The notes under the pieces were generated by a model. The model worked only from the letters and a program-made list of their open reading frames with translations, did not search any database and had not been told where the DNA came from. Positions 28,902 to 29,282 of a stretch of 64,000 nucleotides of DNA are shown one piece after another. The stretch lies in assembly GCF_003334315.1 (NCBI RefSeq), contig NZ_QOWR01000021.1; one strand, written 5' to 3'. This DNA is from Escherichia coli (GTDB taxonomy: Bacteria > Pseudomonadota > Gammaproteobacteria > Enterobacterales > Enterobacteriaceae). The position numbers were made by a program, and so were the translations under genes. Position 1 is the stretch's first letter, and the number at the start of each line of letters is the position of its first letter.

Positions 28902-29085
28902 AACAAAGCCGGGAATTACCCGGCTTTGTTATGGAATAAGGCGGTGCCTAACTCGACGTTTCGCCCGATGGTTGATATAGCTACGCTGATATCAGAAGTT
29001 GGACGGCAGGCACCTTGTTGTGCGTCATTCGTATTTTATGTAGCACGTCCCGAAGGGGCTGACATAAGTCGGTGAATGAGCCACT
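28902..29085 (-). ncRNA. glmY: Small RNA GlmY
   Basis: Minus-strand sequence AGTGGCTCATTCACCGACTTATGTCAGCCCCTTCGGGACGTGC... recognised as GlmY; ends in the hairpin aaagccggg-taattc-ccggcttt; 3' end approximate. Confidence 0.85.
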
Positions 29086-29095
29086 GGTTACTATT

Positions 29096-29112
29096 ATGCA
29101 GTAACTGTGCCA
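29096..29112 (-). promoter_or_regulatory. Sigma54 (-24/-12) promoter of glmY
   Basis: Minus strand TGGCAC-agttac-TGCAT ending about 12 nt upstream of the GlmY 5' end. Confidence 0.7.
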
Positions 29113-29201
29113 ATAAAGAAAATAGTTTGGTAACGTACTGATTATACGTTGCTTTGAGGGGTTTATGTCTCCTCCGCTGTTTGAATGTAAATCAGCCACT
29201 A

Positions 29202-29219
29202 TGTCGCTAAAAAGAGACA
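29202..29219. promoter_or_regulatory. GlrR-type activator site (TGTC-N10-GACA)
   Basis: tgtc-gctaaaaaga-gaca, perfect match, about 120 nt upstream of the glmY start. Confidence 0.55.
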
Positions 29220-29264
29220 ACTTAAGATAAACTTATTAGATGACATTAAAATCAATGAGTTAAA

Positions 29265-29282
29265 CGTCACCAAAAAGCGACA
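29265..29282. promoter_or_regulatory. Second, imperfect GlrR-type site
   Basis: Reverse strand reads tgtc-gctttttggt-gacg. Confidence 0.4.

Follow-up and report, generated by a model that had tools for sequence, protein, structure and literature searches.

glmY, Its Sigma-54 Promoter, and a Polymorphic GlrR Enhancer in a 64-Kilobase Stretch of Escherichia coli DNA

The genes purL, glmY, glrK, qseG, glrR, glnB, and hmp follow one another in the window (the whole stretch of Escherichia coli DNA analyzed here, 64,000 nucleotides long) in the order also found in strain K-12. Open reading frames, NCBIfam matches, and the RefSeq annotation place purL, glmY, and glrK in succession on one strand, which is the conserved position of GlmY (Table 1). 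PurL, QseG, GlrR, and GlnB all passed NCBIfam equivalog cutoffs; GlrK has no specific NCBIfam model and was assigned by its 100% protein identity to the K-12 kinase. The cognate enhancer-binding protein is encoded in the same cluster, as GlrR (444 amino acids, 100% identical to K-12 GlrR), and its gene starts about 2.35 kb downstream of the RNA, close to the 2.3 kb given for this sigma-54 activator in an earlier, sequence-only reading of the region. A longer open reading frame of 496 amino acids, beginning at a TTG at 28906, was rejected as a mechanical extension through the glmY terminator; the real start of glrK is the TTG at 28843, which gives 475 amino acids.

The sequence-only reading had taken the minus-strand RNA between purL and glrK for GlmY (earlier names, sroF/tke1), and both the Rfam search and the comparison with K-12 bear this out. 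Rfam family GlmY_tke1 (RF00128) matched 29085..28938 with 146 bits (gathering score, 33; E value, 5e-33) over the entire model (positions 1 to 163 of 163). Read directly on the minus strand (28700-29500), the start sequence of glmY, from 29085, is AGTGGCTCATTCACC, and the 184-nt RNA folds at −64.2 kcal/mol (z = −4.8). Between the purL terminator and this start, the control region is rich in A+T. In K-12 MG1655, glmY is annotated as b4441 at 2691157..2691340 and glrK starts at 2691098. By alignment, the window and K-12 show 100% identity over the stretch that begins at −116 and includes the glrK TTG; RNA gene, core promoter, promoter-proximal IHF site, terminator, the spacer of 58 nt, and the start of glrK agree base for base. 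Because the DNA is identical, K-12 experiments transfer directly to the RNA, core promoter, terminator, and spacer, and it is from such published experiments that we take the dependence on rpoN, GlrR, and IHF, the RapZ decoy mechanism, and the absence of read-through.

GlmZ is homologous to GlmY in sequence and structure, and both belong to Rfam clan CL00011. An identity as GlmZ, or as a paralogue resembling GlmY/GlmZ, is nevertheless scarcely credible: the match kept as best in the clan was GlmY_tke1, at full model length, and the purL-glmY-glrK synteny together with 100% identity to b4441 settles the choice in favor of GlmY. GlmZ was rejected, as the GlmZ family of the same clan did not win the Rfam match. 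The two RNAs also differ in control and action. In E. coli, glmZ has a sigma-70 promoter only and its RNA base-pairs with glmS, whereas GlmY acts as a RapZ decoy without pairing to glmS (PMC3045617, PMC4152352); in Yersinia and Salmonella, glmZ is also driven by sigma-54 and GlrR (PMC3045617).

GlmY has been described in forms of 184 and 148 nt (PMC4152352). The Rfam match ends at 28938, where the 3' end of a 148-nt form would fall within the motif GCCUUAU (28942..28936), a motif that is mentioned in PMC8745638. Judged from the DNA, a 184-nt primary transcript, its terminator, and the 148-nt form all appear to be encoded here.

Table 1. Features of the glmY region and other RNA features of the window (positions relative to the glmY 5' end at 29085 are given with a sign)
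Feature	Coordinates	Strand	Basis
naRNA4	195-266	-	Rfam, above gathering score
glnB (PII)	24815..25153	-	NCBIfam NF008111, 243 bits
glrR/qseF, sigma-54 enhancer-binding response regulator	25214..26548	-	NCBIfam NF011695 equivalog, 982 bits (cutoff, 763)
qseG, lipoprotein	26538..27251	-	NCBIfam NF007997 equivalog, 359 bits (cutoff, 234)
glrK/qseE, sensor kinase, 475 aa, TTG start	27416..28843	-	100% identity to K-12 GlrK; RefSeq annotation
glrK (qseE) own weak sigma-70 promoter	28868..28903	-	Start at about 28868 from PMC6075780; hexamers read by eye
glmY intrinsic terminator, 12-14 bp stem, loop UAAUU, tail UUUGUUGU	28900..28932	-	Fold
glmY primary transcript, 184 nt	29085 (5')..28902 (3')	-	Rfam; identity to K-12 b4441; fold
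Processed active GlmY, 148 nt (putative)	28938..29085	-	Rfam model end at 28938; 148-nt form from PMC4152352
−10 CATAAT of overlapping weak sigma-70 promoter	29093..29098	-	Direct reading; PMC3045617
Sigma-54 promoter TTGGCACAGTTACTGCAT	29096..29113	-	Direct reading; pattern match; ChIP-seq identity
Promoter-proximal IHF consensus site AATCAGTACGTTA	29131..29143	-	−58..−46; exact match
GlrR box ABS3, perfect TGTC-N10-GACA	29202-29219	.	−134..−117; motif scan
Distal IHF consensus site (site 1) AATCAATGAGTTA	29250..29262	+	−177..−165; exact match
GlrR box ABS2, imperfect TGTC-N10-GACG, TGTCGCTTTTTGGTGACG	29265-29282	.	−197..−180; motif scan
GlrR box ABS1, perfect TGTC-N10-GACA	29298-29315	.	−230..−213; motif scan
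purL terminator hairpin	29321..29342	-	Promoter/terminator scan
purL, upstream neighbor, stop at 29401	29401..33288	-	NCBIfam NF003672, 2276 bits
rncO leader	41754-41968	-	Rfam, above gathering score
AsrC (antisense of rseC)	44751-45582	+	Rfam, above gathering score
ES036	52049-52091	-	Rfam, above gathering score
5S rRNA, at the window edge	63817-63932	-	Rfam, above gathering score

A −24/−12 element had been proposed as TGGCAC-N6-TGCAT at the expected distance from the RNA 5' end, and it is found there: TGGCAC (29112..29107) is followed by agttac and TGCAT (29100..29096), which in the usual notation for a sigma-54 element is TGGCAC-N5-CTGCA. The element, TGGCACAGTTACTGCA, has the spacing of a −24 GG and a −12 GC and carries one mismatch to TGGCAC-N5-TTGCW. 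Counted from 29085, GG lies at −26/−25 and GC at −14/−13, which puts the C of this GC 13 nt upstream of where the RNA begins. Matches to TGGCAC-N5-TTGCW with at most one mismatch numbered four in the 64-kb window (3.6 expected), a count at chance level, and the glmY element is the only one of the four to keep the GG. The 17-mer TTGGCACAGTTACTGCA (29113..29097) is identical to OS24, a site that the K-12 sigma-54 ChIP-seq map assigns to glmY; its ChIP score, 200, ranks among the highest of the table rows listed (PMC4591121). Dependence of glmY transcription on rpoN and on the activator has been published for K-12 (PMC3045617, PMC6075780, PMC4591121). Overlapping this element is a characterized sigma-70 −10 hexamer, CATAAT, whose start site is shared with the sigma-54 promoter (PMC3045617). 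A generic promoter/terminator scanner run on the window found the purL terminator; the glmY sigma-70 promoter, the glrK sigma-70 promoter, and the glmY terminator were all missed by it. Both of these promoters are weak, and G residues interrupt the terminator's U-tail.

Three GlrR boxes stand more than 100 bp upstream, between −117 and −230, with IHF sites nearby, and three boxes with two IHF consensus sites is the layout published for K-12 (PMC3045617). The two boxes named in the sequence-only reading, one perfect (29202-29219) and one imperfect (29265-29282), lie exactly where it had put them, but its inventory was incomplete: the third box, also perfect, lay outside the range it covered and was missed, and it contained neither of the two IHF sites, nor the sigma-70 promoter overlapping the sigma-54 promoter, nor the sigma-70 promoter of glrK. 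We number the boxes ABS1 (distal), ABS2 (middle), and ABS3 (proximal), which we infer from the report that two IHF-like sites flank ABS3 in K-12 (PMC3045617) and from the positions of the IHF sites here. Six exact matches to the IHF consensus WATCARNNNNTTR occur in the 64 kb, and ABS3 is flanked by two of them. Exact TGTC-N10-GACA occurs just twice in the 64 kb, both times here, 96 bp apart and within 114 bp; 0.66 such boxes were expected per window, and a count of two was reached in 12 of 100 shuffles. With one mismatch allowed, 17 boxes were found across the window against 21 expected, which is chance level. Because loose motif counts are at chance level, motif statistics were dropped as evidence for the GlrR boxes and for the sigma-54 element, and the argument was built instead on how the sites cluster, where they lie, and their identity to sites validated in K-12. 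In K-12, the sigma-54 promoter is reported to require both ABS2 and the distal IHF site (PMC3045617). The T-run of the purL terminator runs straight into ABS1 (29298-29342), and any purL read-through would therefore cross the glmY enhancer.

At its 3' end, glmY runs into a hairpin with arms AAAGCCGGG and CCCGGCTTT and loop TAATT, which folds at −23.3 kcal/mol (z = −8.2). The hairpin itself had been recognized earlier, as aaagccggg-taattc-ccggcttt, in which one C was misplaced into the loop. From the glmY 3' end to the glrK TTG, we measured 58 nt, the same as in the K-12 annotation and as the approximate figure proposed before. It was from this short gap that the sequence-only reading had argued for read-through coupling of the RNA and its kinase. 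On that account, glmY and glrK-qseG-glrR would form one unit, in which transcription past the hairpin supplies the mRNA of kinase and regulator and so provides positive autoregulation; the terminator tail is broken by G residues, and in Proteus mirabilis reverse transcription-PCR (RT-PCR) pointed to an operon, glmY-qseEGF, transcribed from the promoter of glmY (PMC8745638). We regard such coupling as very unlikely in E. coli, where it has already been tested in K-12 and is contradicted by the results. The gap is preceded by a strong terminator, a G+C-rich stem of 12 to 14 bp with a U-rich tail. On DNA identical to that of the window, a K-12 qseE'-lacZ fusion that included all of the glmY locus could not be told apart from a short fusion, and its activity was unaffected by deletion of qseF or qseG; earlier K-12 RT-PCR had indicated that read-through "does virtually not occur" (all PMC6075780), and the two-component system has been described as "transcribed independently" (PMC3045617).

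The kinase gene has instead its own sigma-70 promoter, with transcription starting 25 bp upstream of qseE's start codon (PMC6075780). By eye, its putative −10 is TAGCAT (28880..28875) and its putative −35 is TTGTAT (28903..28898), with a 17-bp spacer; this candidate −35 overlaps the glmY terminator tail.

Taken together, sequence anatomy, Rfam membership, and K-12 identity make it almost certain that the minus-strand locus is E. coli glmY, a sigma-54-, GlrR-, and IHF-driven small RNA that serves as a decoy for RapZ and has no read-through coupling to glrK. We found nothing that speaks against the identification as glmY. Of the earlier interpretation, the assignment to GlmY and GlrR thus stands, and the plausibility of glmY-glrK read-through does not. 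The locus, with its sigma-54 promoter and GlrR sites, is already known, well studied, and of textbook standing.

Sigma-54 polymerase would sit at TTGGCAC-N5-CTGCA, with remote activation by phosphorylated GlrR (QseF) on the three boxes of the form TGTC-N10-GACA (near −125, −188, and −221); the IHF sites that flank the proximal box presumably bend the DNA. The weak sigma-70 promoter (−10 CATAAT) overlaps and would start at the same base, 29085. Transcription is predicted to end at the strong hairpin, giving the 184-nt RNA, which would be trimmed to 148 nt. Processed GlmY would mimic GlmZ and sequester RapZ, the RNase E adaptor; GlmZ would thereby be spared, activate glmS translation, and so allow glucosamine-6-phosphate to be restored. 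The sequestration of RapZ and the protection of GlmZ have been published for the identical K-12 RNA (PMC4152352, PMC7073468). RapZ senses glucosamine-6-phosphate, ligand-free RapZ stimulates QseE/QseF phosphorylation and hence glmY transcription, and binding of GlmY to RapZ closes a negative feedback loop (PMC7073468). The glrK-qseG-glrR genes would use their own weak sigma-70 promoter, without read-through from glmY. Proteus mirabilis shares the synteny of the window in its glmY-qseEGF locus, with a putative promoter region that combines a sigma-70 promoter and an overlapping sigma-54 promoter, two IHF sites, and three sites for QseF (PMC8745638).

A 25-kb piece of the window matched several complete genomes at an identity that rounds to 100.0%. 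Each of the 5,426 complete E. coli genomes compared has a single, chromosomal copy of the purL-glrK intergenic region. A 214-nt stretch comprising the RNA and core promoter is at least 99% identical in 4,371 of these and at least 95% identical in all of them. The 90 nt from ABS1 to the distal IHF site (29236-29325), in contrast, are matched exactly in only 169 of the 5,426 genomes (about 3%), fall in the 80 to 90% band in 2,175, and have no megablast match in 941; across E. coli, polymorphism is far greater in the GlrR enhancer region than in the glmY RNA and core promoter. Over the same 90 nt, the window is 91.1% identical to K-12. While ABS1, ABS3, and the GlrR and GlrK proteins are identical in the two, eight substitutions separate them in this stretch, among them the change of GACA to GACG in ABS2 and two changes in the ABS2 spacer (K-12, TGTCGCTTTCTGGCGACA; window, TGTCGCTTTTTGGTGACG).

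In an alignment of 10 E. coli haplotypes, ABS1 and ABS3 are invariant and the half-sites of ABS2 vary in two. The haplotype shared by the window and CP53 alone has GACG for GACA, together with both changes in the spacer; in strain 1604D011, it is the left half-site that is altered, in mirror image, with CGTC for TGTC. Because each of these half-site changes falls on the palindrome's outermost base pair, this position seems to be tolerated, as far as the haplotypes can suggest.

ABS2 is off consensus here and essential in K-12, so the strength of activation by GlrR may differ from that in K-12. A weakened enhancer, in which the ABS2 change cuts GlrR-dependent activation of the sigma-54 promoter and leaves this lineage more reliant on sigma-70 than K-12 is, strikes us as unlikely, though less so than read-through. 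The GACG half-site is confined to one of the 10 haplotypes sampled, the exact 90-nt haplotype occurs in the 169 genomes mentioned above, the site affected is the one reported as essential (PMC3045617), and GlrR is unchanged, which leaves no compensating change in the protein. Set against this, the change affects the outermost palindrome base alone, the variant of 1604D011 suggests that the position is tolerated, functional promoters deviate from the box consensus in an alignment of 39 enterobacterial genomes (PMC3045617), and the other two boxes (ABS1 and ABS3), the pair of IHF sites, and the core promoter are intact. We hold it doubtful that the GACG haplotype represents a natural down-tuning of the branch from QseE/QseF to GlmY, with a shift to the basal sigma-70 promoter. 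If it did, an envelope-precursor signaling branch would be tuned down in about 3% of sequenced E. coli. Natural variation of the enhancer is the only local detail with potential, in that it could be used to probe how much degeneracy an enhancer site tolerates; the locus is otherwise ordinary and holds nothing new for the field.

Several smaller observations concern the same region. Position 29201, which adjoins ABS3 on its 3' side, is T in the window and C in K-12 and in all nine other haplotypes sampled; it may be a private single-nucleotide polymorphism or a sequencing error. A 621-nt query had no exact match among complete E. coli genomes, the best being 99.8% identical. In strain GMF065 (NZ_CM183923.1; L009 1-47), the place taken by the end of purL in other strains is occupied by an IS200/IS605 tnpA gene, directly upstream of glmY's control region, and the sequence just upstream of ABS1 differs as well. 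Just past the purL stop, the stretch 29355-29395, GCAGCCCGGATGCGGCATTAAG, looks like a REP-type palindromic element, and it is flipped in other strains (GCCGCATCCGGCATTAAG).

Elsewhere in the window, rpoE lies on the minus strand with its upstream region (47182-48164), 18 kb from glmY. The region upstream of rpoE is the second known sigma-54 promoter activated by QseF/GlrR (PMC6075780, PMC6358824); neither a canonical −24/−12 match nor a GlrR box was found there (47758-48164 by eye, and motif scans of the window), and a sigma-E autoregulated promoter (GGAACTT...TCTAA) was seen. A sigma-54-like match, TTGCACAATTGTTGCA, at 46276-46291 on the minus strand falls inside a 318-amino-acid open reading frame (45543..46499) that we take as rseB from its position; lacking the GG dinucleotide, the match is probably due to chance. 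In addition to the RNA features of Table 1, Rfam matched ohsC_RNA at 38265-38341 on the plus strand (106.8 bits), the antitoxin small RNA of the shoB/ohsC type I toxin-antitoxin pair.
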